Assembly: GCA_903868455.1 (NCBI GenBank)
Contig: CAIPVK010000189.1
Coordinates: forward strand, 1 to 38,740
Direction of reading: 5' to 3'
Source: an uncultured Opitutia bacterium
GTDB taxonomy: Bacteria; Verrucomicrobiota; Verrucomicrobiia; Opitutales; UBA953
DNA: 38,740 nt
Part shown: piece after piece, positions 12,769 to 38,205 of the stretch
How the letters are laid out: every line of letters starts with the position of its first letter
Numbering within the stretch: the stretch's first letter is position 1
The notes under the pieces: model-generated
Told to the model about the DNA's origin: nothing
Seen by the model: the letters and a program-made list of their open reading frames with translations, nothing else
Database searches by the model: none
Position numbers and translations under genes: made by a program

Positions 12769-12892
12769 GGATTAAAGGGAGAAAGGGATTAAAGGGATGA
12801 AGAGATGAAGGGGATTAAGGGAGGAGGGGATGGGAAGAGGGGATGGGGTGCAATACTTAGGGGGACTAGGGGGATAGGGGACTAGGGGACGA

Positions 12893-12947
12893 GGTAGGGG
12901 CGGCTCGCCGAGCCGACCGCGGACGCCTCGGAGAGGCATCCCTACCC
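12893..12947. repeat. REP-A structured palindromic element (full copy)
   Basis: GGTAGGGG-CGGCTCGCCGAGCCG-ACCGC-GGACGCCTC-GGA-GAGGCATCC-CTACCC: an outer GGTAGGG/CCCTACC stem enclosing two internal hairpins. Confidence 0.8.
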
Positions 12948-13250
12948 GTTTCAGCGGTGGCAGCGGTAGCAGCGGTGGCAGCGGAGGGCCTCCGGCCCTG
13001 CGAGATTTGCAATCGAGGTAGGGGCGGCTCGCCGAGCCGACCGCCTCTGCCTCGTGCTCCTCGTCATCCTTCGAATCCTCGTCTTCGCCTTTTCTAGCCT
13101 CTTCTAGCCCCTTCCATCGTTTTAGCGGTCCTAGCGGGCTAACGGAGGGAGCTTCGCTCCGGTAGCTTATCCTCCGCCTCCTCGTCATCCTCCCCATCCT
13201 CCACCTCCTCGCATTCCCCACTCCCCGCTCCCCAAAAGCCTCGCGATCAA

Positions 13251-13274
13251 CCGTGGCTACCACGGGGTTCTTTT
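13251..13274 (+). promoter_or_regulatory. terminator-like hairpin plus T-tract about 110 nt upstream of prfB
   Basis: CCGTGG-CTA-CCACGG followed by GGTTCTTTT. No plus-strand gene lies upstream, so any role (insulator or leader element) is speculative. Confidence 0.3.
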
Positions 13275-13382
13275 AAACTCTCGCCTCCCCTGCCCTCTTA
13301 CTTTTCACCCTAGGTTCATCGTGTCGCCTGGCTCCTGCCACGGCGGTCCCGCCTCCCCGCCATCCCGCCGTCCCGCCCACCC

Positions 13383-14525
13383 ATGTACATCCCGCCCGAG
13401 ACCCGAGCCGCCCTCGAGGAAGCCGAGCGCCGCGCCAACCACCTCTGGAAGTTCCTCGACGTCCCCGGCAAGCAGGCGCGCATCCTCGAGCTCGAGGGCA
13501 AGATGGCCGAGCAGGGCTTCTGGGATAGCCAGCAGGCCGCCCAGAAGGTCATCCAGGAATCCAACCAGCTGAAGACCATCGCCAACCCCCAGGCCGCCTT
13601 CCGCCGCAAGATCGAGGACGCCAAGACCCTGGCCGAGCTCGTGGCCGAGACCCCCGAGGGCGCCGAGGCCGAGGTCGCCGAGCTGACCGAGCTGGCCAAC
13701 GCCTTGGTGGCCGAGGTCGCCGACCTCGAGATCGCCTCCTTCCTCTCCGGCCCGCACGACAAGTCCAACGCCCTGCTCACGGTCAAGGCCGGGGCCGGCG
13801 GCACCGAGTCCAACGACTGGGCGGACATGCTCTTCCGCATGTACATGCGCTGGGCCGAGCGCCGCGGCTACAAGGTCGAGGTCGAGGAGGTCTCCGAGGG
13901 CGAGGGCGCCGGCATCTCGTCCGCGACGATCCGCATCGAGGGCCCCAACGCCTACGGCTACGCCAAGGCCGAGCGCGGCGTCCACCGCCTCGTCCGCATC
14001 TCGCCCTTCGACGCCAACGACCGCCGCCACACCTCCTTCGCCTCGATCGACGTGGTGGCGGAGATCGACGACGACGTGGATGTCGAGGTGAAGGAGGCCG
14101 ACCTCCGGGTCGACGTCTACCGCTCCTCCGGCAAGGGCGGCCAGCACGTCAACAAGACCGAGTCGGCCGTGCGCCTCACCCACATCCCCACCGGCATCGT
14201 GGTGGCCTGCCAGCGCGAGCGCTCGCAGCACAAGAACCGCGAGCTCGCCATGAAGATCCTCCGCGCCCGCATCTACGAGAAGACCCTCGACGACAAGCGC
14301 GCCGAGATGGAGCGCTTCTACGGCGAGAAGGGCGACATCGGCTGGGGCAACCAGATCCGCTCCTACGTCTTCCAGCCCTACCAGATGGTGAAGGACCTCC
14401 GCACCGGGGTCCAGACGGGCAATATCCAGGCGGTGATGGACGGCGACCTCGACCAGTTCGTGAACGCCTGGCTGCGCGCCGGCGGCCCCCGCACGCGCAA
14501 CAAGGATATCAAGATGGAGGATTGA
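13383..14525 (+). CDS. prfB: peptide chain release factor 2
   Basis: SPF tripeptide (RISPFD) and the GGQ motif ([26 protein letters not shown]). One uninterrupted frame from the ATG at 13383; no internal UGA frameshift site. Confidence 0.95.
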
Positions 14526-14542
14526 GCGGCCTTCGGCCGCTC
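14524..14542 (+). terminator. GC hairpin overlapping the prfB stop codon (no U-tract)
   Basis: GAGCGGCC-TTC-GGCCGCTC, an 8-bp perfect stem starting within the TGA (14523-14525). It is followed by G-rich words rather than T residues, so it is not a canonical intrinsic terminator. Confidence 0.4.
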
Positions 14543-14840
14543 GGCGGGTAGGCGGGGACAGCGGTTCGGCGGGGTTGGCGGGGAATAACTCGCTGCGCTA
14601 ATTTGGCGGGGTTGGCGGTTCGGCGGGGTCAGCGGGGTTGGCGGGAGAGAACGCGCTGCGCTCGTTTCCGTATGCTATGTTGGGAGCTGAAAGGTGGGCC
14701 GAGATGGGCCGGCTCAACCGTCCGACCACGGTCCGCTCAATAGCCGAATCGCATCCAAGGCCACGAGCGCAGCGAGTTCTGCGCCGCGGACCCCGCCGAC
14801 CCCGCTGCCCCGCTAGCTTCTCCTCCGCCCCTTTGCCGCC
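14543..14840. repeat. intergenic repeat array R8 (distinct GGCGGGGTTGGCGG vocabulary)
   Basis: Convergent spacer between prfB and the sulfatase gene. G-rich words GGCGGGGTTGGCGG / GCGGTTCGGCGGGG on the left, C-rich complements GGACCCCGCCGACCCCGCTGCCCCGC on the right. Three copies of the word ACTCGCTGCGCT, one of them inverted. Confidence 0.8.
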
Positions 14841-16208
14841 TCAGCGCCTCCTCTGTCCCTTCGGCGGACTGGCCTTCGGATCGTAGGCGGGGTTGGGTTG
14901 GTCGGCGAGGAAGGCGCCGGTCGCGCGCTGCCAAGCCGTCAGCTTGGCCTTCATCTCCTCCAGGCGGCGCGGCTCGGCGGCGGCGAGATTGCGGCTCTCG
15001 GAGGGATCCTCGCGGAGGTTGTAGAGCTCGTAGGTCGGCCCCGCGAACTTGTGGATGAGCTTGAAGTCGCCGTCGCGCATCAGGCTCATCGGCTCGCCCT
15101 TGCCGATATAGCACGGGAAGTGCCAGAAGAGCGGCCGGGCCGCCAGCGAACCGCCCGAGCGGAGCGCGGGCAGGAGGCTGACGCCGTCCACCGGCTGGTC
15201 CTTGGGCAGGGCGACGCCGGCGGCCTCGAGCGCGGTCGGGAAAAGGTCCATGCCGAGCACCGGCGACTCCAGGGTCTTGCCGGCGGGGATGACGCCGGGC
15301 CAGCGCGCGGCGCCGGGCACGCGGATGCCGCCCTCGTAGAGGAGGCCCTTGCTGCCGCGCAGGGGCGCGACCACGGAGGGCATGCCGCCGTTGTCGCTCG
15401 TGAAGAGGACGAGCGTGTCGCGGTCCAGGCCGAGCGAGGCGAGCGCGGCCATGAGCCGGCCGAAGTTGGCATCCACCGCCTCGACGCTGGCGGCGTAGGC
15501 GGGATCCTGGGAGGCCGAGCCGGCCTGGGCGGCCTTGCGACGATACTTCTCGAGCAGCTCGGGCTTGGGGTCGAGGGGCTCGTGCACCGAGTGATCGGCG
15601 AAGTAGAGGAAGAAGGGCTTGCCCTTCTGCTTCCCGACCCAGGCGATGGCCTCGTCGGTGAGCGCGTCGCTCAGGTAGCGCCCCTTGGCGTCCTTGTAGG
15701 CGTCCTTGGCGAAACCGAGGTCCTCCGGCCGACGATAGAGGTCGAAACCCTGGCCGGTCGGGCTCCCCGAGGCGCCGGCGCGGCCCCGGCCGAGGTTCCA
15801 CATGCCGACGAGGGCGGTCGAGTAGCCCTGAGCCTTCAGCGCCTCGGCCAGGTTCGTCGTGCGGGTCGGCAGCTCGTCGGACCCGCGGGTCGACATCACG
15901 CGCATGTGCGCCTGGCCCGGGGCGTAGCGCTCGTCGACGACCGTGTAGACGCCGTGGCGGGGCGTGTATTGGCCGGTGAGGAGGCAGGCCCGGCTCGGCG
16001 CGCAGTTGGGGGCGCTGGCGTAGCACTGCGCGAAACGGACGCCTTCCTGGGCGAAGCGGTCGAGGTGGGGGGTCTCGACGAAGCGGTTGCCGGCGAACCC
16101 GGTGTCGCGCCAGCCCATGTCATCCATCAGCACGACCACGATGTTGGGCCGCTGGGCGGCGGCGAGCGACGACGCCAGGCAGGCCAGCAGGAGGGCGAGG
16201 CGGCTCAT
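14841..16208 (-). CDS. Cys-type sulfatase (arylsulfatase A family)
   Basis: Signal peptide, then PNIVVVLMDDMGW and SAPNCAPSRACLLTG (C-x-P-x-R formylglycine motif). Confidence 0.9.
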   Translation of the reverse strand: MSRLALLLACLASSLAAAQRPNIVVVLMDDMGWRDTGFAGNRFVETPHLDRFAQEGVRFAQCYASAPNCAPSRACLLTGQYTPRHGVYTVVDERYAPGQAHMRVMSTRGSDELPTRTTNLAEALKAQGYSTALVGMWNLGRGRAGASGSPTGQGFDLYRRPEDLGFAKDAYKDAKGRYLSDALTDEAIAWVGKQKGKPFFLYFADHSVHEPLDPKPELLEKYRRKAAQAGSASQDPAYAASVEAVDANFGRLMAALASLGLDRDTLVLFTSDNGGMPSVVAPLRGSKGLLYEGGIRVPGAARWPGVIPAGKTLESPVLGMDLFPTALEAAGVALPKDQPVDGVSLLPALRSGGSLAARPLFWHFPCYIGKGEPMSLMRDGDFKLIHKFAGPTYELYNLREDPSESRNLAAAEPRRLEEMKAKLTAWQRATGAFLADQPNPAYDPKASPPKGQRRR

Positions 16209-17821
16209 CGGGGCTTCACCACGTAGCTGTGGGCGACGGCGCCGTGGCGGCGGTCGACGGACTCATCCTTGGGGAGGAAGGTCCGCACATACTCGACCTT
16301 CACCTCGGCGGGGGAGACCGAGACGCGGACGTAGCCCGAGTTCGGGAGGACGGGGCCGCCGGCGTAGCGGTCGGCGTTGAGGGCCTCGTAGGTGCTGTCC
16401 GAGGGCATCGGCAGCTCCTGGTAGACGACGCCGTCCTTCTCCTGGCGGCAGTAGAGGTGGTCGTGGCCCTGGAAGAAGACGCTGACCTTGTGCTTGGCCA
16501 TCAGCTGGTGGACGGGCAGTTCCCAGCCGGGGCGCTTCTGGGCGAACGTGCCGCCCTTGCCCTTGCCGCCCCACTCGTAGAGCTCGGCCTCCTCGACCCC
16601 GCCGCGGCCGGTGCCGAGGACGTGGTGGGCGAAGACGAACTTATGGCGGGCCTTGCTCTGCTCGAGGGTCCGCTTGAGCCAGGCGTACTGGGCGTCGCCG
16701 AGGGTGATGCCCCACCAATCGCGATCGCGGCCCTTGCCGCCGCCGCGGGTGTCCTCGCCCTTGAACCCGCTGTCCACGAGGGCGGGCGAGTGCCAGTAGT
16801 TGTCGAGGATGACGAACAGGGCGTCGCCCCAGGTCCAGGCGCAGTAGCTGCGCAGCTCGCCGATGTCCTTCCAGGGCGTCGGGTCGCCGCTGTGGAAGGC
16901 GCCGGCCTTCGGCGTGGGGTAGAACCGGTTGCGGGCCACCTGGGCGCCCACGGCCACGGCGCGGCGGTCGTCGGTCTGGCTGTAGTTGTAGAGCGAGGCC
17001 TGCTCGTGGTTGCCGTTGAGGAGGAAGAGGGGGGCGGTCTGGCCGACGATGCCGAGGAAGGGGCGCTGGAGGACGTAGGGGGCGGCGAGGGACTCCGGGC
17101 TGATCGTGCGGACCTGCTCCACGCTGAAGTCGTCGCCCATGCAGATATGGAAGTCGGGCCGGGAGGCGGCCGCGTGGGCGAGGGTCCGGGCGTAGAGCTC
17201 CGGATTCGAGACCTTGCCCATGCGCTCGGGGTGCGAGTCGCCCTGGATCGTGAACGTGAAGGCGCTGCCCGGGGCCCGCTGGGTCGAGAACCCCTGCTCG
17301 GGGCGGGCGGCGAAGGCGGGGGCGCCGGCCTTGCGATGGTGGAGGCGATAATGGACGCGGCTGTCGGGACGAAGGCCGTCCACCTCCACCTCGACGGGCT
17401 GGCCCGCGGGAAGGGCGGTCACGGCGGTCTTGCGGTCATACTTGCCCGGCGCGGCGCCGATCTCGAGGTAGGCCTCCGAGGCGGTGGGCGCGAGCAGGCT
17501 GAAGGTGGCCGAGTTGGCCGTCACCCGGCCCAGCACGACCGAGAGCGCGTTCTGGTCGGCGTGCTCGGCGGGAACCACGAAGGCTCCCTTGCCCTCGCCT
17601 CGGCCGCCGCCGGCGCCGCCGCGTTTCCCTCCCTTGCCCTCCTTGCCGCCCTTGGCGGGAGCCGCGGGGGTCGCGGGCTCGGCGGCGCGGGCGCCGGCCG
17701 CCATGGCCCCGAGGAGACCGAGGGCGCCCAGGAACCAGCGCCGGCCATGTTGGGGCAAGGCGGGGATGAAGAAGGGATTGGGGCGTTCGGAAGGGGGCTG
17801 GCCCTGGTCGCGCGGTTCCAT
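16205..17821 (-). CDS. Tat-exported metallophosphoesterase (purple-acid-phosphatase/PhoD-like)
   Basis: Twin-arginine motif GRRWFLGALGLLGAMAAGARA. Metallophosphoesterase motifs GDSH, GDDF, NGNHE, GHDH. ATGA overlap with the sulfatase gene. Confidence 0.8.
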   Translation of the reverse strand: MEPRDQGQPPSERPNPFFIPALPQHGRRWFLGALGLLGAMAAGARAAEPATPAAPAKGGKEGKGGKRGGAGGGRGEGKGAFVVPAEHADQNALSVVLGRVTANSATFSLLAPTASEAYLEIGAAPGKYDRKTAVTALPAGQPVEVEVDGLRPDSRVHYRLHHRKAGAPAFAARPEQGFSTQRAPGSAFTFTIQGDSHPERMGKVSNPELYARTLAHAAASRPDFHICMGDDFSVEQVRTISPESLAAPYVLQRPFLGIVGQTAPLFLLNGNHEQASLYNYSQTDDRRAVAVGAQVARNRFYPTPKAGAFHSGDPTPWKDIGELRSYCAWTWGDALFVILDNYWHSPALVDSGFKGEDTRGGGKGRDRDWWGITLGDAQYAWLKRTLEQSKARHKFVFAHHVLGTGRGGVEEAELYEWGGKGKGGTFAQKRPGWELPVHQLMAKHKVSVFFQGHDHLYCRQEKDGVVYQELPMPSDSTYEALNADRYAGGPVLPNSGYVRVSVSPAEVKVEYVRTFLPKDESVDRRHGAVAHSYVVKPR

Positions 17822-28696: not shown

Positions 28697-28752
28697 GGGT
28701 AGGGCTGGCTCGCCGAGCCGGCCGCGGACGCCTCGGAGAGGCGTCCCTACCC
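28697..28752. repeat. REP-A element (full copy, left of the giant gene)
   Basis: GGGTAGGGCTGGCTCGCCGAGCCGGCCGCGGACGCCTCGGAGAGGCGTCCCTACCC. Confidence 0.85.
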
Positions 28753-28804
28753 GGGGAAGAATTCAGACGGAAGAATTCAGATGAAAGAACGCCGAAAGAC
28801 CCAT

Positions 28805-28835
28805 GAAAACAAAGAGGCCCGCTTTCGCGGGCCCC
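28805..28835 (-). terminator. intrinsic terminator of the giant gene
   Basis: Minus strand reads GGGGCCCGC-GAAA-GCGGGCCTC followed by TTTGTTTTC, about 20 nt downstream of the TAA at 28859-28857. Confidence 0.75.
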
Positions 28836-28856
28836 CTTCTCTTTCATTTGAACTCT

Positions 28857-31800
28857 TTACTTTGAATTCTTCTTCCGACGGCGCAGGGCCGCCCCAGCGA
28901 GGGCCAGGCCGCCGAGCATCAGGCCGTAGGTCGAGGGCTCGGGGATGGGGGCGTAGGTGAGCCTGATCGCGGACCCGGTGTCGACCAGCGAGAGGAATGC
29001 CGGGTCGAGGCCGAATCCGGCGTAGGTCAGCCCGGTGGTGTCGAGGTCGAAGAACTGCGAGATCGAGCCCTCGTAACTGCTGATGGAGCCGTAGCTGATC
29101 AGGTCGAAGGCGTAGGTCTCGGCGGGATCGAAGTCCTGGAGGTCACCGGCCGTCGTGAGGTCCGACAGCGAGACGACCGTCAGGCCGACGCGGTTGAGCA
29201 GCGAGAGGGCGGAGATGTCCAGCAGGCCCGAGACGACGATCGTGTCGTAGTCCGTGCCGGCGTTGGGCGTGTAGACGCCACCTCCGGAGTTGAGGATCTC
29301 GAAGTCCAGGTTGCCGCCGGTCAGGGTCAAGGTGGCGAGGTTCTGGATGCCGGGCGAGTTGCCGGGGGCGAGCGTGCCGCCCGCCGCCAGCGTCACCGCG
29401 TCGAGCGAGCCCGAGCCGCGCAGGGTGCCGTCGGAGACGACGACGTCGGCGTTCGGGGCGTCGGCCGTCGTGAGGTTGAGCTCGGCGCCTTCCGTGAGCT
29501 CGAGGGAACCCGTGAAGCTCGTCAGGCCGGCCGCGACCGCGCCGGTGCCGGCAAGGCGGAGGGAGCCGGTGAAGTTGGCGACGTCGACCGAGGCGCCGGT
29601 GCCGACGAGGACCGTGGGCGAGCCGCCCAGGTTGGCGTCGTCCAACACGACCTCCTCGTCCGCGACATTGAGCGTCCCCTTGAAGGCCGAGCCCTGGATC
29701 TGGCCGCCCTTGTAGGCCACCGTGCCGGTGAAGTCGGCGCCGGAGCCGAAGTTCAGCGAGCCGCCGGCGCGGACCTCGAGGGTCGCGTTCTGGCCGGGGC
29801 GGTTGCCGGCCGAGGAGAGGTCGAGCGCGCCCGCGACGGCGAGCGTGCCCGAGAAGGAACCCAAACCCGTGAGGGTGGGCGCGCCGGTGAGGACGAGCGT
29901 CTTGCCCGGGTTGAGCTGCGAGGCGTCGACCGTGGCGCCCGTGCCGAGGGTGATCTCGGAAGCCGCGAGGTTGTTGATCGTCTCGGCGGAGACATTGCCC
30001 GTGACGGTCACCGTGGCGGGAGCCCAGTTGCCGGCGTTGAGAAGGCCGCCGCCCGCGAGGGTGATGACGTTGGTCGGGTTCAGGCCGGCGAGGTCGAGGA
30101 AGCCGCCGTTGATGACCACGGAGCCGGTGCCGAGCGCCGACACATGGCCGATGCTGAGCGTGCCCCCGCTGATGGTCGTGCCCCCCGAGTAGGTGCTGGC
30201 GGCACCCAGGATCCAGGTGCCCGCGCCGGACTTGGTCAGGGAACCGGAGCCGGAGAAGGCCTTGCCGAAGGTGCCGTCGCCGGCGCCGGCGAGGGTCAGG
30301 TTGGGATTGCCGTTGTAGACGAAGGCGACGTCGCCGTCGGTTCCGTCGAGCACCCAGTTGGCCCCGGAGAGCGACTCGAGGGTGGCGCCGCCGGAGTTGA
30401 CGGTGATGCCGCGGCCGTAGGCGGTGGTGCCGGCGGCGGCCATGCGGACGGTGCCGCCGTTGACCACAAAGGCGGCGGCGGCGTTGCGTAGCCCGCCGAG
30501 GGACTGGGAAGTCTCGCCGTAGGCCCAGTTCTCGAGCTCGACCGTGGCGCCTGAGTTGACGGTGACCACCGCGGTGCCGTTGAAGGCGCCGGAATAGAGG
30601 CGGCCTCCCGAGGCGAGGCGCAGGACGCCGTTGTCGACCGTGGTGGAACCGACGTAGGTGTTGGCGCCCTGGAGGGTCATGACCCCGGTGCCCGTCTTGC
30701 GGAGGCCATTGGTCGAGCCGTTCATCTGCGTGATCGCCCCGGTCACGGTGAGGTCGGAAGCCGGGGTGAGGGAGCCGCGGGAGACGGCGAAGGTCGTCAG
30801 GCCGCCGTTGTCCTGCAGGGCGAGCTTGGCGGCGCTGATCGTGGCGGCGTTGCCGGAGGCGTCCGAGGTGGCGGTGATCCCGGCCCCGTTGAAGAGCGAG
30901 TAGTTCCCCCAGGTGTCGCCGTTCCCGACGCCGGCGAGGGTGCCGCCGGTCATGGTGAGGGTGTTGGCGACCGTGGCGCGGAAGCCGGAGGAGATGGTGA
31001 TCGTCCCGCCGGAATTGACGGTCATCGCGCCGCGACCCGTGGTGTAACCGAGGGCGTCCTGGGCGTCGAGGCGGAGGGTGCCGCCGGAGTTGACCGTGAC
31101 GCCGCTGGCAAGCGTGCCGGCGGCGGAATTCGCCAGCGCGAGCGAGAGGACGCCGCCGTTGACCACGGCGCCTCCGGTGAAGGTGTTGCCTGCGGAGAGA
31201 CGCATCACGCCGGAACCCGTCTTGCGGAGGGGGGTGACGCCGGAGAGGATGGCGGAGACCAGGAGGTCGACTCCGGAGGCGTCGCCCGTGGAGCCGACGA
31301 CGAAGTCGTTGAAGCCGCCGGCCGCGGGCGTGTTTCCTGCGTTGAGCGCGAAGCTGTAGGTCGAGCCCGAGATGACCGAGCGGGCGGAGCCGTTGACGGT
31401 GATCGTGTTGTCCAGCGTGCCGAACTCGTTGTTGTAGGGCGCGGCCGACGCGAGACCGGTGAGTGTGCCGCCGGCGAGGGTCACGAGGCCGAAGTGGTTG
31501 TGACCGTTGGCGGAGGAATAGCTGACCCGGATGGTGCCGCCCTCGGCGATCACAGGGAGCGTGTCGGAGACGTTGTTATAGATGATGTTGACGCCGGTGA
31601 GCGTCAGCGTCGCCCCGGTCTTGACCGTCACGGCCGAGGACGAGAGCGCGCGGCCGTAGTTCTCGGTGGAGAGGACAAGCTCGCCGGAGTTGACGGTGGT
31701 GGCGCCGGTGTAGGTGCTGCGCGTGCGCAGGACGAGTGTGCCGGCGTCGACGGTCAGGGTGCCGGTGCCGGAAATGGCTCCCGTCAGGTCGAGGGTGCCC

Positions 31801-34800
31801 GCGCCGGCCTTGGTGAAGGACCGGCTGCGCGTGCCGCCGCCGTTGAGCGTGAGCGATCCGGTGGCGCTGGAGACGTCGATCGTGCCCGTGCCCTGGTCGA
31901 AGAACAGCGAGCGACCGCTGGTGACGGCGCCTGAACCGGTGTAACGCAGCGTGCCGCCGACAAGCGAGATGAAGCCGGTGGCGCCGGAACCGGCTCCGAG
32001 GTTCGACGCCGAGCCGTCGGCGACCGTGGAGAACTCAAGGACGCCGGCGTTGACCACGGTGCCGCCGGTGTAGGTGTTGGCGCCGGAGAGCGTGAGCGTG
32101 CCGTTTCCGGACTTGCGCAGGGTGCCGTTGGAGACGACGCCGGAGAGGGTCACCGCCGAGTCGGTGGTGAGGACCGGGCCATTGCCGCCCAGGTCGAACC
32201 CGCCGGAGAACGTGAGCGCGCCGGAGCGGGTGGCGTCGCCGAGGGTGGTGGAGGCGGCGAGGCTAACCGAGTTGGCAAGGGAGCGCGCGGAGGAGCCGTC
32301 CGAGGAGAGGCGGCCGCCCGAGAGGGTCAGGGTGCCGTTGCCCAGGGCGGTCGAGGAGCCGACGCGCAACGTGCCGTCGGACAGGCTGACGCCGCCCGAG
32401 AAGGTGTTGGAGCCGGCGAGGGTCAGGACACCCGCGCCGCTCTTGGAGATGGCGCCGTTGGAGACCGCGCCGTTGAGGGTGAGGTCGGAGGCGGAGCTGG
32501 CGGCGAGGGTGGAACCTCCGAGATTGAGCGCGCCGTTGAGGGTGCCGACGCCGGTCAGGGAGCCGCCGGAGAGGGTGATGGCGTTGGCGAGGGTGCGTCC
32601 GTTGATATCAAGGCTGCCGCCGGAGACGGTAACCGAGCCCGTGCCGAGGGCCGAGTTGTCGTTGGCCCGGACGACGCCCGCCTGGATGGTCGTGCCGCTC
32701 GAGTAGGTGTTGGCGCCGGAGAGCTCGAGGGTGCCGTTGCCCGCCTTGGTGAGCCCGCCGTTGGAGACGACGCCGGAGATCGCGACGTCGGACGCCACGG
32801 TGACGGCGCGGGTGGCGCCGCCGAGGTCCTGGGCGCCCGAGAGGGTCAGCGCGCCGGTGTCGGTCGCGTCGCCGAGGGTGACGTCGCCGCCGTAGACGAC
32901 GGCGACGGAGAGGGTCCGCGTGGTGCCGGAATCGGAGGAGAGGGCGCCGCCATTGAAGAGGAGGGCACCGGAGCCGAGGGCGCCGGCCGCGCCGAGGCGG
33001 ATGCGGCCCGAGGAGAGGGTCGTGCCTCCGGCGTAAGTGTTGGCGTTGCCGAGGGTCAGGGAACCGTAGCCGGACATGGCCAAGCTGCCGGAGGCGATGC
33101 CGTGGGTGCCGGTGATGGTGAAGTCGTTGAAGCCGGTGACGAGGACGCTCGTCGTGTTGACGTCCGCGCCGTCGATGCGGGCCGTCGTGCCGGTGGCCAG
33201 GTCGTTGAAGAGGACGGCGTCGGCGTCGAGGAACTCGGTGCCGGAATCGTCGGTGTCGAGCTTCCAGTTCTGCGCGCCGCCGATCGCGGCCGTGGTCCAG
33301 AGGTCGCTCTCCTCGCCGCTCCAGTAGGGAGTGGCGCCGGTCACGACATACTGCAGGACGCCGCCGTTTACCTCGAGGGAGGGCGTCTGGCGGCTGGAGG
33401 TCGTGGGCTGGGTGCCGAGGACGAAGGCCGAGAGGCCGGTGCCGCCGATGGATCCCCCGGTGAACGAGACCAGGTTGTAGGCGCCGTTGACGGCTCCCCC
33501 GCCACCGAGGTTGACCGTGACGGAGTTCGCGCCCCCGTTGGCCGTGAGCGCGCCGACGGAGAGGGCCGAGGAGACGGAGTAATTGGTGAAAGGCCCGATG
33601 TTCAGGGTCGCGGCGCCGGCGAAGGTGAGGTTGCCGGTGGTGAGGGTGCCGAGCACGCCGTTTCCGGCGGTGAGGATCGCGCCGGAAGCGGCCGTCACCG
33701 CTCCGACCGAGCCCGCGCCCGAGAGGACGGAGCCGCTGTCCAAGGAGACCGAGTTGGAGACGGTGCCCGCGACCGTGAGGGAGGCGTTGCCGGTGAGGGT
33801 GACCGCCCCGGCCACGGTGCCGGAGACGGACGCGCTGGAGCCGGCGGCGAGGGCGACGGTGCCGCCGACCGTGCCGGCGACGTTGAGGGTGGCGCCGGAG
33901 GCGACGCTGACGGCTGAGCTCGCCGAGAGGGAGCCGCCCGCCGCCACGGACAGGGTGCCGTTGCTCACGGTCGTGGCCCGGGTATAGGTGTTGACGCCCG
34001 AGAGGGTGAGCGTGCCGGCGCCCAGCTTGGTGAGGGCGAGGGTGCCACCCGACTGGCCGATGGCGCCGGAGAAGGAACCGTCGGAGACAATGAGCGTGTC
34101 CGCGCCCGCGATGGCGGAGATGACGCCCGAGCCGGCGAGGGTGCCGATGGTCTCGGAGTTGCCACCCTTGGCGAGACGGAGCGAGCCATTGACGGTCGTC
34201 GTGCCGGCGTCGGGGATGAAGCTGTTGGAGGTGGCGGAGCCGTCGCTCAGCTGCAGGATGGAACCCGAGCCGACGGTGGTGGCGCCGGCATAGCTGTTGG
34301 CGGTCCCGAGGAAGATGACGCGGTTCGTGCCGGCGATCGTGACGTCGCCGGTGCCGGAGATGCCGCCCGAGAAGTCCGTGCGGCCGCCCGCGGTGCTGCC
34401 GGTCAGGGTGACGGAACGAGCGAGGGTGACGGCTCCCGAGAAGGCCGCCGTGCTCGTGCCCGAGGTCGTGGCCGAGCCGAGGGTGACGACGCCGGCGCCA
34501 TTGGAGGTCACGCTGATGGCGCGGCCGAGCGTGACGCCGCCGGCTGTGGCGTTGACCAGGAGCGAGAGGTCGCTCGAACCGGTGGAGGCGTCGCCGAGGG
34601 TAACGGTGCCGGTGGTGCCGAGGGCGTTGGCGTTGGAGGCGACCACCGTGCCGGCGCGGACGGTCGTGCCGCCGCTGTAGGAGTTGGAGCCGGAGAGGAG
34701 CAGCGTGCCGGCGCCGGTCTTCAGGAGGGCGCCGTTGCCGATGCGGTCATTGGAGCCGTTGGTGAGGACGGCGGAGACCGTGAGGTCGACGGCCGAACTC

Positions 34801-36485
34801 AAGGTGGCGTCGGCGACCGCCAAGGTCAGGGTCTTGCCGCCACCGATGTGGTAGGCGCCGTTGGAGGCGGCCGAGCTGGATATGGTCGAGGCGGAGGAAC
34901 CGCCGACGGTCACGGTGCTGCCGTTGAACTCCCAAGTCTGGTACGAGCCGTTGGAGCCGGCGGTGGCGGTCATGGTGCCGCCGTTGAGGTCGACGTTGCC
35001 GATGACGTTGTAGGCGTCGGCGGCGAGGGTGCCGCCGTTGACGATCACCTTGATGGTGTTGGCCAAGGTCTGCGAGCCGCCGCCGAAGACGTTGTTGCCG
35101 GAGGCGAGGAGGGTGGCGCCGGAATTGACGGTGATCGTCCGCGAGCCGCTGGACTGACCCAGGGAGGTGTTGGTGTTGCCGGAGGCCCCGAGGCCGACCA
35201 GCGTGCCGCCGTCGACCGTGATGTTGCCGGTGAAGCTGTTGTTGACGTTGTTGAGCACCATGGTGCCGACACCGGTCTTGAGGATACCCCCGGCGGTTCC
35301 TCCGTTGGTGCCCGTCGGGCCGAGGGCCATGGTCACAAGGAGGTCGCGCCCGCTGTCCGTGGCGGTGGAGTTGACGTCGGCGACCGCGAAGGTCGACACG
35401 CCCGTCATGTTGAAGCCGCCGGTGCCGTTGAGGCGGGCCGCGCCGGCATAGGTGCCGCTGACGGTGACGACGGCGGCGCCGGTGCTGGTGCTGCCGAGGA
35501 GGATGCCGTAGCCGCCGGTGGCCCGGTTGGAGGTGATGGTGCCGCCGTTGTTCAGCGTGAGGTTGCCGATGCGCATCTCGACCCCGCTCTCGAAGCGGAC
35601 GATGCCGGTGCCCTCGGCGGCGATGCTGCGGTTGGCCGCCATGGCGGTGCCGTGGCCGCCGGTGAAGAGGTTGGTGGCGTTGAGGGAGATGGTGCCGCCG
35701 GTGCGGGCGGTGACCGTCGTGACGGAGTGCAACCCCTGGAAGGCGCCGAAGGTCAGGGTGCCGGTGCCGGCGTAGATCACATTGCCGTTGCTGGTGTTGG
35801 CCGAGATGGTCTCGTTGACGGTGATGTTGCCCGCGCCGCCGAAGGTGAGGGTGCCGCCGACCGCGATGTCGCTGTTGCCGTTGCCCGAGAGCGTCAGGGT
35901 CTGGCCGGCCGTGGCCATGTTGAAGAAGCCCGTTGAGCCGTTGGCGACGTTGAAGTTGTTACCGGCGGAATGCGAGTTGCCGACGACATTGATCGTGCCG
36001 CCATTCAGGACGCGGCGCGCGCCGTAGTCGGCGAGCTGGCCGAGGCCGCCCGCGGCGCCGTAGGCGAAGCTGTCGAGCTCGAGCGTGCCGCCGGCGTTGA
36101 CCGTGACGGCGTAGGCGTTGGTGTAACCCGCGTTGTAGAGCTGCCCGCCGGAGACCTTGAACTTGCCATCCGCGATCGAGAGATTGCCGGTGTAGGTGGA
36201 CGAGCCGGTGAGGGTGAAGGTGCCGGCGCCGGTGAGCGAGAGGTTGCCGGAGCCCGTGAGCGTGGTGGCCGAGAGGTTGAAGCCGGCGTTCGCGAGGGTG
36301 TAGGCGCTGCTGACGGTGACCGTGCCCGCGGTGATGGCGCTGCCGAGCGTGATCGTGCCGACGGTGCCGGCGAGGACGGCGTTGTCGCCGTTGGTCCAAT
36401 TGACGGCGGTCGCGCCATCCTCCCAGCCCGAGGCGCCGGCGGTCCAGGTGCCGCTGCCGCCGCCGGAGGCGGTGTTGACGGTCAC
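28857..36485 (-). CDS. giant (2,542 aa as called) autotransporter-associated beta-strand-repeat surface protein with a C-terminal PEP-CTERM sorting signal; 5' end apparently frameshifted
   Basis: Longest ORF in the window. Dozens of degenerate units of the type GTLTLSGANTYSGGTTVxxGxL (PF12951-like). The C-terminus PIPEPSTYGLMLGGLALAGAALRRRKKNSK is a PEP motif plus a TM helix plus a basic tail. The called start is a GTG with no signal peptide; see 36482..36586. Confidence 0.9.
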   Translation of the reverse strand: MTVNTASGGGSGTWTAGASGWEDGATAVNWTNGDNAVLAGTVGTITLGSAITAGTVTVSSAYTLANAGFNLSATTLTGSGNLSLTGAGTFTLTGSSTYTGNLSIADGKFKVSGGQLYNAGYTNAYAVTVNAGGTLELDSFAYGAAGGLGQLADYGARRVLNGGTINVVGNSHSAGNNFNVANGSTGFFNMATAGQTLTLSGNGNSDIAVGGTLTFGGAGNITVNETISANTSNGNVIYAGTGTLTFGAFQGLHSVTTVTARTGGTISLNATNLFTGGHGTAMAANRSIAAEGTGIVRFESGVEMRIGNLTLNNGGTITSNRATGGYGILLGSTSTGAAVVTVSGTYAGAARLNGTGGFNMTGVSTFAVADVNSTATDSGRDLLVTMALGPTGTNGGTAGGILKTGVGTMVLNNVNNSFTGNITVDGGTLVGLGASGNTNTSLGQSSGSRTITVNSGATLLASGNNVFGGGSQTLANTIKVIVNGGTLAADAYNVIGNVDLNGGTMTATAGSNGSYQTWEFNGSTVTVGGSSASTISSSAASNGAYHIGGGKTLTLAVADATLSSAVDLTVSAVLTNGSNDRIGNGALLKTGAGTLLLSGSNSYSGGTTVRAGTVVASNANALGTTGTVTLGDASTGSSDLSLLVNATAGGVTLGRAISVTSNGAGVVTLGSATTSGTSTAAFSGAVTLARSVTLTGSTAGGRTDFSGGISGTGDVTIAGTNRVIFLGTANSYAGATTVGSGSILQLSDGSATSNSFIPDAGTTTVNGSLRLAKGGNSETIGTLAGSGVISAIAGADTLIVSDGSFSGAIGQSGGTLALTKLGAGTLTLSGVNTYTRATTVSNGTLSVAAGGSLSASSAVSVASGATLNVAGTVGGTVALAAGSSASVSGTVAGAVTLTGNASLTVAGTVSNSVSLDSGSVLSGAGSVGAVTAASGAILTAGNGVLGTLTTGNLTFAGAATLNIGPFTNYSVSSALSVGALTANGGANSVTVNLGGGGAVNGAYNLVSFTGGSIGGTGLSAFVLGTQPTTSSRQTPSLEVNGGVLQYVVTGATPYWSGEESDLWTTAAIGGAQNWKLDTDDSGTEFLDADAVLFNDLATGTTARIDGADVNTTSVLVTGFNDFTITGTHGIASGSLAMSGYGSLTLGNANTYAGGTTLSSGRIRLGAAGALGSGALLFNGGALSSDSGTTRTLSVAVVYGGDVTLGDATDTGALTLSGAQDLGGATRAVTVASDVAISGVVSNGGLTKAGNGTLELSGANTYSSGTTIQAGVVRANDNSALGTGSVTVSGGSLDINGRTLANAITLSGGSLTGVGTLNGALNLGGSTLAASSASDLTLNGAVSNGAISKSGAGVLTLAGSNTFSGGVSLSDGTLRVGSSTALGNGTLTLSGGRLSSDGSSARSLANSVSLAASTTLGDATRSGALTFSGGFDLGGNGPVLTTDSAVTLSGVVSNGTLRKSGNGTLTLSGANTYTGGTVVNAGVLEFSTVADGSASNLGAGSGATGFISLVGGTLRYTGSGAVTSGRSLFFDQGTGTIDVSSATGSLTLNGGGTRSRSFTKAGAGTLDLTGAISGTGTLTVDAGTLVLRTRSTYTGATTVNSGELVLSTENYGRALSSSAVTVKTGATLTLTGVNIIYNNVSDTLPVIAEGGTIRVSYSSANGHNHFGLVTLAGGTLTGLASAAPYNNEFGTLDNTITVNGSARSVISGSTYSFALNAGNTPAAGGFNDFVVGSTGDASGVDLLVSAILSGVTPLRKTGSGVMRLSAGNTFTGGAVVNGGVLSLALANSAAGTLASGVTVNSGGTLRLDAQDALGYTTGRGAMTVNSGGTITISSGFRATVANTLTMTGGTLAGVGNGDTWGNYSLFNGAGITATSDASGNAATISAAKLALQDNGGLTTFAVSRGSLTPASDLTVTGAITQMNGSTNGLRKTGTGVMTLQGANTYVGSTTVDNGVLRLASGGRLYSGAFNGTAVVTVNSGATVELENWAYGETSQSLGGLRNAAAAFVVNGGTVRMAAAGTTAYGRGITVNSGGATLESLSGANWVLDGTDGDVAFVYNGNPNLTLAGAGDGTFGKAFSGSGSLTKSGAGTWILGAASTYSGGTTISGGTLSIGHVSALGTGSVVINGGFLDLAGLNPTNVITLAGGGLLNAGNWAPATVTVTGNVSAETINNLAASEITLGTGATVDASQLNPGKTLVLTGAPTLTGLGSFSGTLAVAGALDLSSAGNRPGQNATLEVRAGGSLNFGSGADFTGTVAYKGGQIQGSAFKGTLNVADEEVVLDDANLGGSPTVLVGTGASVDVANFTGSLRLAGTGAVAAGLTSFTGSLELTEGAELNLTTADAPNADVVVSDGTLRGSGSLDAVTLAAGGTLAPGNSPGIQNLATLTLTGGNLDFEILNSGGGVYTPNAGTDYDTIVVSGLLDISALSLLNRVGLTVVSLSDLTTAGDLQDFDPAETYAFDLISYGSISSYEGSISQFFDLDTTGLTYAGFGLDPAFLSLVDTGSAIRLTYAPIPEPSTYGLMLGGLALAGAALRRRKKNSK

Positions 36486-36586
36486 GGTCGCGCCATCCAG
36501 TAGAGGGTGGCGGCGGAAGTCGTCGCGGTCGCGCCGATGAACGCGGCAGCGAGAAGGGTACGCAGAGAGGTCCGTGCGGTACGCAT
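36482..36586 (-). other. orphaned signal-peptide mini-ORF; probable true 5' end of the giant gene in another frame
   Basis: My translation of the minus strand from the ATG at 36586: MRTARTSLRTLLAAAFIGATATTSAATLYWMARP-stop (TGA 36484-36482). The giant ORF's frame is open but start-less across this stretch. Adding one G at GGATGG (about 36493-36499) would read ...ATLYWDGATVTVNTASGGGSGTW. Confidence 0.7.
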
Positions 36587-36702
36587 AGATATAAGAAGGG
36601 GTATGGGTAAATTTAACGACCCGTCCCGAATCCCCGCAAGCCTCTTGGCCGGTTTTTTTTGGTTAAAGAAAGGAATACAGGCAGGGCCTACCCGTTCCAG
36701 CT

Positions 36703-36760
36703 GGGTAGGGTCGCGGCTACGTCCGAGACCTAGGGCATGGGCGTAGCCATGCCCTTACCC
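36703..36760. repeat. REP-B element (second copy, same orientation)
   Basis: Differs from 28414-28470 at 2 positions by eye (CGTGAC vs CGAGAC; CCCCTACC vs CCCTTACC). Confidence 0.8.
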
Positions 36761-36767
36761 TTGCAGC

Positions 36768-36823
36768 GGGTAGGGCCGGCTCACCGAGCCGGCCGCGGAC
36801 GCCTAGGCGTGGCGTCCCTACCC
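36768..36823. repeat. REP-A element (full copy, right of the giant gene, same orientation)
   Basis: GGGTAGGGCCGGCTCACCGAGCCGGCCGCGGACGCCTAGGCGTGGCGTCCCTACCC. Confidence 0.85.
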
Positions 36824-37128: not shown

Positions 37129-38205
37129 GTGTCCCGCATCCTTGTGGCCCTCTCCGGCGGCGTCGACAGCGCCGTGGCCGCCCTCCTGCTCAAGCGCGAG
37201 GGGCACGAGCTCGTGGGAGCCCATATCCGGACCTGGAAGAACGAGGAGGGCCTCCCCTTCCCCGGTGAATGCCCCTGGGAGGCCGACCAGCGGGATGCCG
37301 AGGCCGTCGCCCGGACCCTGGGAATCCCCTTCCGTTCGGTCGACCTCGTGGCCGACTACCGCCGGGTCGTGGTGGATTATCTCGTGGAGGGCTACCGGCG
37401 CGGCCTTACCCCCAACCCCGACATCGTCTGCAACCGCGAGATGAAGTTCGGGGCCTTCCTGAACCTCGCCCGATCCGAGGGCTTCGAGGCCGTCGCCACC
37501 GGGCACTACGCCCGCCGCCTGCCCCGCCCCGACGGCTCGGTCGAGATCCACATGGGGGCCGACCGCGACAAGGACCAGACCTACTTCCTCGCGCTCAACC
37601 GCCAGGAGCAGATGCGCGACGCGCGTTTCCCGCTGGGAGGCCTGCTCAAGGGCGAGGTCCGCCGCCTCGCCACCGAGGCCGGCCTGCCCAACGCCGAGCG
37701 CAAGGACAGCCAAGGCATCTGCTTCCTCGGCCAGGTCCGCATCCAGGATTTCCTCGAGCGCCACATCCCCGACGCGCCGGGGCCGATCGAGACGCCCGAC
37801 GGCAAGGTGCTGGGCGAGCATCGCGGCCTGCACCGCTTCACGCTCGGACAGCGAAAGGGCATCGGATTGCCGTCCAACGCCGACCACGAGCACTTCGTCG
37901 TCGTGGCCAAGGACCTCGCGCGGCGCGCCCTCATCGTGGCCTTCGACCATCCGGGCACGCCCGGCCTCTACGCCGACCACGCCGTGGTCGACGGCCTCTC
38001 GTGGCTCAACGAGCCGGCGACCGAGGCGCGCGAGCTGCTCGCGCGCGTCCGCCACCGCGACCCCGCGACGCCGGCGCGCCTCGAGCCGCGCGGCGACGGG
38101 TCGGCGACCCTTAGGTTCGCCCGGACCCAGCGCGGCCTCGCCTCCGGGCAGGTCGTGGCGCTGTACGACGGCGAGCGGCTGATGGGAGGCGGCGTCCTGC
38201 GATGA
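37129..38205 (+). CDS. mnmA: tRNA 2-thiouridine(34) synthase MnmA
   Basis: PP-loop RILVALSGGVDSAVAA. Conserved NPDIVCN and DKDQTYFL. The track start 37087 is TTG and sits directly against the repeat array; the in-frame GTG at 37129 gives a typical MnmA N-terminus. Start is uncertain (37087 or 37129). Confidence 0.9.
   Translation: MSRILVALSGGVDSAVAALLLKREGHELVGAHIRTWKNEEGLPFPGECPWEADQRDAEAVARTLGIPFRSVDLVADYRRVVVDYLVEGYRRGLTPNPDIVCNREMKFGAFLNLARSEGFEAVATGHYARRLPRPDGSVEIHMGADRDKDQTYFLALNRQEQMRDARFPLGGLLKGEVRRLATEAGLPNAERKDSQGICFLGQVRIQDFLERHIPDAPGPIETPDGKVLGEHRGLHRFTLGQRKGIGLPSNADHEHFVVVAKDLARRALIVAFDHPGTPGLYADHAVVDGLSWLNEPATEARELLARVRHRDPATPARLEPRGDGSATLRFARTQRGLASGQVVALYDGERLMGGGVLR

Follow-up and report, generated by a model that had tools for sequence, protein, structure and literature searches.

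In the window analysed here, a stretch of 38,740 nucleotides from an uncultured Opitutia bacterium (contig CAIPVK010000189.1 of assembly GCA_903868455.1, positions 1 to 38,740), a giant gene on the minus strand encodes a repeat protein with a PEP-CTERM sorting signal, and its signal peptide lies in a different reading frame from its body. The comparison with relatives and with other assemblies showed that one base has been lost at the junction of the two parts. In our judgement the giant gene is quite probably a young loss-of-function allele, an incipient pseudogene that arose by a recent 1-bp deletion and is fixed or dominant in its population.

The two reading frames were re-read from the sequence, and the coordinates and translations that an earlier note on this DNA had given for both of them were all correct. 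On the minus strand, an ATG at 36586-36584 opens a 34-codon leader open reading frame (ORF), MRTARTSLRTLLAAAFIGATATTSAATLYWMARP*, which is stopped by the TGA at 36484-36482. The giant ORF (28857..36485, minus strand, 2,542 aa) lies in the -1 frame relative to the leader ORF, and its first usable start is the GTG at 36485. The giant frame is open upstream to about 36660, and no ATG, GTG or TTG was found in that upstream part. It reads ...HPLLDGATVTVNTASGGGSGTW and extends as a 2,542-codon ORF to 28857. The positions of all features are collected in Table 1.

To place the shift, the sequence was compared with its homologues. With the first 400 residues as query, the window's own product (P0002) was followed by a protein of 2,681 aa (P0003), which was 69% identical over the N-terminal query region and 61.5% identical over its full length. 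P0003 begins with MRSVLSRSSLLAAAALVGTALSSSAATFYWDGATVTADATS... and reads ...SSSAATFYWDGATVTADATS in the junction region. It is encoded at locus L007 of NCBI assembly GCA_964510855.1, which is syntenic with the window, with mnmA-type and UbiE-type methyltransferase genes lying divergently upstream. When the two frames of the window were fused, the resulting reading ...ATLYW-DGATVTVNTASGGGSGTW agreed with the homologue N-termini. The same arrangement was seen in more distant homologues (P0005, P0010, P0011 and P0022), in which the signal peptide is followed by ...AATY[YH]WDDG[ST]VTV[ND]GASGGG. In an alignment of eight N-termini, the fused window reading fitted along its whole length and residues W30 and D31 were invariant. 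The resemblance is not due to chance. The earlier note had proposed such an alignment with orthologue N-termini as a check, and its outcome was that the signal peptide is in frame with the body in the homologues, across an invariant W-D junction.

The DNA alignment (A1) then located the lesion. A single 1-nt gap was found in the window and in loci L001-L006, facing TATTGGGATGG in the orthologue, where TAT TGG GAT GGT stands against TAC TGG ATG G in the window. Since this is a single 1-nt gap, the lesion is the loss of one G from the GGG run of TGG-GAT (W30-D31), at 36497-36498. This result upheld the earlier proposal of a 1-nt indel at TGG/ATG (plus-strand CCATCC, 36493-36498), where one added G fuses the frames, and orthologue DNA and the contig sets of five relatives agreed on it. 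The frame is thus broken relative to intact close orthologues, as in a frameshift pseudogene. The motif TAYTGGGAYGG was not found elsewhere in the window, and a paralogue sharing this junction is therefore absent from it. Scanning the genome contigs with the fused N-terminus gave one distant locus (L008), at 41% identity, which was uninformative.

We next compared the site within the source population. This comparison was made on contigs (Logan k-mer assemblies and ENA/NCBI assemblies), and contigs drop rare variants. The whole stretch was present in each of four lake-water metagenome runs from one study (X1-X4). Exactly one Logan contig per run crossed 36462-36532, with 0 differences from the window, at depths of 15.3, 10.4, 30.8 and 13, and no contig with an inserted base at the site was found in X1-X4 (1% reporting threshold, 80-85% likeness). 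Calls of the exact 2,542-aa product, which requires the frameshift, came from 11-12 contigs in about ten ENA/NCBI assemblies, and its 90%-identity protein cluster held neither a second member nor an intact variant. Six contigs from other assemblies were the same as the window at the site and 99.9% identical to it overall, over up to 12.9 kb. The divergence within the population was about 0.06% (8 differences in 12,884 nt), and the single-nucleotide polymorphisms (SNPs) that could be located, in five loci aligning without a gap, all lay outside the giant gene. The deletion was therefore present in all assemblies of the source population, and within one near-clonal lake population it is either fixed or dominant. 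A search for RNA runs that contain the stretch gave none. The sample names suggest the data set on stratified lakes by Buck et al. 2021 (PMC8121793) as the source, a link that is based on the ENA record label BUCK21-1.

A minor strain was also visible in X3 and X4 at a depth of 3-6, joining the main path at 36427-36456 and leaving it at 36562-36591. In X3, the depths of the major strain (26.5) and the minor strain (4.36) add up to the 30.8 seen on the common segment, which suggests, as something short of proof, that the minor strain has the same deleted segment. A depth-6 contig of X3 agrees with the window over 36562-36591, which covers the first codons and 5 nt of leader, and is wholly divergent from 36592 upstream; it represents a minor strain or relative with a different 5' untranslated or promoter region.

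The relatives outside this population all carried the extra base. In another lake study (X6 and X9, probably one data set deposited twice), low-depth fragments matched the giant gene and its neighbours mnmA and ubiE at 92-99% identity. Their contig over 36362-36511 (150 nt) showed 6 mismatches and, on the plus strand, one additional C behind 36496, corresponding to the missing G. The same base was present in contigs 84-89% identical to the window from freshwater (X11 and X12), mine tailings (X14) and groundwater (X5). Together with L007, the in-frame relatives came from six sources at three levels of divergence. As every relative has the extra base, the deletion is private to the source population and recent, and it is younger than a split at about 4% nucleotide divergence.

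The coding signature of the gene was then determined on both sides of the site. Upstream of 36497 most differences from the relatives were synonymous when read in the signal-peptide frame, and downstream of it when read in the giant frame, indicating that both parts once coded as one gene. Against the orthologue, dN/dS was 0.23, with dS saturated. GC content at third codon positions (GC3) was 94.5%, and stops numbered 54 and 7 in the two other sense frames and 0 in the gene frame (2,546 codons). By these measures the gene was functional until recently.

The features of the protein show what the lesion separates. The leader combines a basic n-region with a hydrophobic core (LLAAAFIGATA, mean Kyte-Doolittle 2.07) and a c-region of small residues (TSAA), and the N-terminus of the giant ORF as called has a mean Kyte-Doolittle value of 0.02 and no hydrophobic segment. 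The body of the giant protein consists of autotransporter-associated beta-strand repeats (PATR; TIGR02601/PF12951), with 13 stretches matched to TIGR02601 (E = 2e-66). At its C-terminus, TIGR02595 scored 25.7 bits (cut-off 16) at residues 2514-2539, identifying a PEP-CTERM sorting signal, and a match to PF07589 was precomputed. The giant protein therefore shares the C-terminal PEP motif, helix and basic tail of the PEP-CTERM/exosortase substrates, and in its homologues a Sec signal peptide leads into (A)T-[LYF]-Y-W-D-G. Unlike the great majority of the PEP-CTERM family, the window copy has its signal peptide out of frame with the body: the N-terminal Sec signal peptide is present, in the other frame. 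A signal peptide was found in 97% of PEP-CTERM proteins, and in the PEP-CTERM model passage across the inner membrane by the Sec pathway precedes the action of exosortase (Haft et al. 2006, PMC1569441). Because this model needs a signal peptide, a copy without one should not be sorted.

Taken together, the following course of events seems probable. The gene is the orthologue of one for an ordinary secreted giant beta-helix protein of PATR repeats with a PEP-CTERM anchor signal. In this lake population one G of the GGG run was lost, probably by replication slippage at this short run. Translation from the ancestral ATG would now stop after 34 codons, and the product of the 2,542-codon body, having no in-frame signal peptide, is predicted to be barred from the Sec pathway and from exosortase. 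A GTGA stop/start overlap is the classical geometry of termination-reinitiation, and a signal-less cytoplasmic body could arise by reinitiation at the GTG that overlaps the leader TGA. The gene resembles other young frameshift pseudogenes in having a single 1-nt deletion in a short homopolymer, intact close relatives and an otherwise intact coding signature. Nothing essential sets it apart from them; the one unusual point is that the lesion splits the export signal cleanly from a 7.6-kb body and creates the GTGA overlap. Inactivation by a young single-lesion frameshift is an ordinary, already known kind of event.

Several other causes of the broken frame were considered. An artefact of sequencing or assembly, with GGG and an intact ordinary gene in the true genome, is extremely improbable. 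The window is itself a metagenome assembly, and the four runs X1-X4 come from one study and are perhaps its source reads. Against this, the four samples gave the same sequence in an independent k-mer assembly at depths of 10-31 with no alternative contig, and the 'METAG-scaffold' scaffolds and 'k141' contigs of other assemblies agreed with the window. Short reads are not prone to indels at a run of two bases. Assembly error was rejected on the identity of four runs and six other-assembly contigs at the site. We give just as little credence to programmed recoding, in which -1 ribosomal frameshifting or transcriptional slippage at the W/D junction would restore the protein with its signal peptide at a set rate. 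Such recoding would fit the intact state of both parts, the promoter-proximal motifs conserved with the orthologue and the lack of a second lesion, and the overlapping frames do give a sensible fusion after a -1 shift, as in frameshifting of the dnaX or IS-element type. To yield a working signal peptide, the shift would have to occur within T-L-Y-W-M-A-R-P-stop. Inspection of this segment (ACC CUC UAC UGG AUG GCG CGA CCG UGA) found no slippery heptamer of the form X XXY YYZ, and tRNA-Trp cannot re-pair on CUG. A run of two G is too short for transcriptional slippage or for phase variation. The 93 nt downstream had a folding energy of -45 kcal/mol against a shuffle mean of -44.9 (z = -0.04), giving no sign of a stimulatory RNA structure. 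The two-frame layout was also not conserved: L007, X5, X6/X9, X11, X12 and X14 were all in frame, and even at about 96% identity the relatives encode the fused protein. Unlike the dnaX and IS-element systems, the junction here has no slippery heptamer, stimulatory structure or phylogenetic conservation, and programmed -1 frameshifting was rejected on these three grounds.

Population or phase variation, with intact and deleted alleles coexisting and the assemblies showing the majority state, is unlikely, if somewhat less so. Contigs lose rare variants, and the state of the minor strain of X3 and X4 at the site is not certainly readable. However, contingency loci have a long simple-sequence tract and both states in one population, and here the tract is only GG/GGG, with no repeat of contingency length. 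The contigs of X1-X4 showed a single state, with rare alleles possible: no extra-base contig appeared in the four runs at the threshold given above, the depth sum in X3 suggests that the minor strain has the same segment, and the 90% protein cluster was free of an intact variant. Among the four causes put forward in the earlier note, recent pseudogenisation was the only one to fit; sequencing error, programmed -1 frameshifting and a phase variant did not hold up.

The least improbable of the alternatives is adaptive loss: a selected knock-out of the export of a costly giant surface fibre, for example in escape from phage or grazers, swept across strain backgrounds by recombination. No allele other than the deleted one was seen in any sample. 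It is linked to two 3'-end alleles and to a strain whose downstream context differs, and the 7.6-kb gene has no SNP in long contigs while the adjoining mnmA has SNPs between assemblies. On the other side, the population is near-clonal (99.9%), drift or hitch-hiking fits equally well, and a look-up by exact protein is biased against variants. Less likely than a selected knock-out is continued use of a cytoplasmic or rare frameshifted product, for which the body would be kept.

Some observations weigh against a simple loss of function. The gene body has no second lesion. The only variation of the giant gene in the long contigs of X1-X4 was a 4-nt variant in the PEP-CTERM tail, a second allele seen in X2-X4 at 28884-28896 (C>G, G>T, G>A and A>C within 13 nt), which changes one residue only, a conservative L>I. 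X1 had the window's form of this tail and X3 had both forms; only the deleted 5' end was seen in these samples, so the deleted allele is paired with two different 3'-end alleles. In one ENA record, moreover, a PhdYeFM antitoxin/YoeB toxin pair lies 366 nt downstream, where the window has the NAD kinase gene; this record is a strain-level structural variant with the same frameshifted allele. The two 3'-end alleles and the different downstream context indicate that the allele has lasted, or has spread between strain backgrounds; a state that is tolerated or selected would also be compatible with this. An intact minor allele may exist as well, since rare variants are dropped from contigs. As to the missing second lesion, in a population with only about 0.06% divergence neutrality would not yet predict a second hit in 7.6 kb, and its lack is therefore no argument for continued function. 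A recently inactivated gene remains our preferred explanation.

For annotation, the 2,542-aa call from GTG 36485 should be flagged as a frameshifted gene with its true start at ATG 36586, and not as an intact signal-less protein. The gene offers a clean case in which a costly surface protein was inactivated very recently by a single lesion that is fixed or dominant in a natural freshwater population, and with intact alleles in sister populations it could serve studies of gene loss in the wild. The finding shows no new mechanism.

Table 1 Features of the giant gene and its leader in the window
Feature	Position	Strand	Evidence
Signal-peptide-coding 5' part of the ancestral gene (M1..W30), ATG and hydrophobic core kept	36497..36586	-	Alignment to P0003 and six further homologues, signal-peptide region
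34-codon leader ORF created by the frameshift (signal peptide, MARP and TGA)	36482..36586	-	Sequence
1-nt deletion site, GG in the window against GGG (TGG-GAT, W30-D31) in the orthologue and all relatives	36497..36498	-	Alignment A1, relatives' contigs
GTGA, leader TGA overlapping the GTG of the giant ORF; putative termination-reinitiation site	36482..36485	-	Sequence
Giant ORF as callable: 2,542 aa, 13 PATR repeat matches, no internal stop, GC3 94.5%	28857..36485	-	Profile matches, codon statistics
PEP-CTERM sorting signal, residues 2514-2539 (PEP motif, hydrophobic helix, RRRKK)	28869..28946	-	TIGR02595

The surroundings of the gene gave some further observations. A sigma-70 promoter scan upstream of the gene gave no match, a negative without weight here, as the sigma-70 model may not suit the host lineage. 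Within mnmA, four SNPs fall in 37 nt (37623-37659) between the window and L001-L003 and L006, a cluster that looks like a short recombination tract or a mosaic of assembly consensus. At L007, the interval 12789-17818 separates the giant gene from the NAD kinase gene and contains lepA, a gene for a TPP enzyme and one for signal peptidase I (Peptidase_S26). As the giant gene adjoins the NAD kinase gene in the window but not at L007, the region has been rearranged between the two lineages. On both intergenic flanks of the giant gene (36691-36800 and 28700-28966), many metagenome contigs matched, with a summed depth of 200-1,400 against 10-30 for the gene. This excess of depth showed that the flank stretches are members of a high-copy REP/MITE-like palindromic repeat family (GGGTAGGG.../...CCCTACCC).

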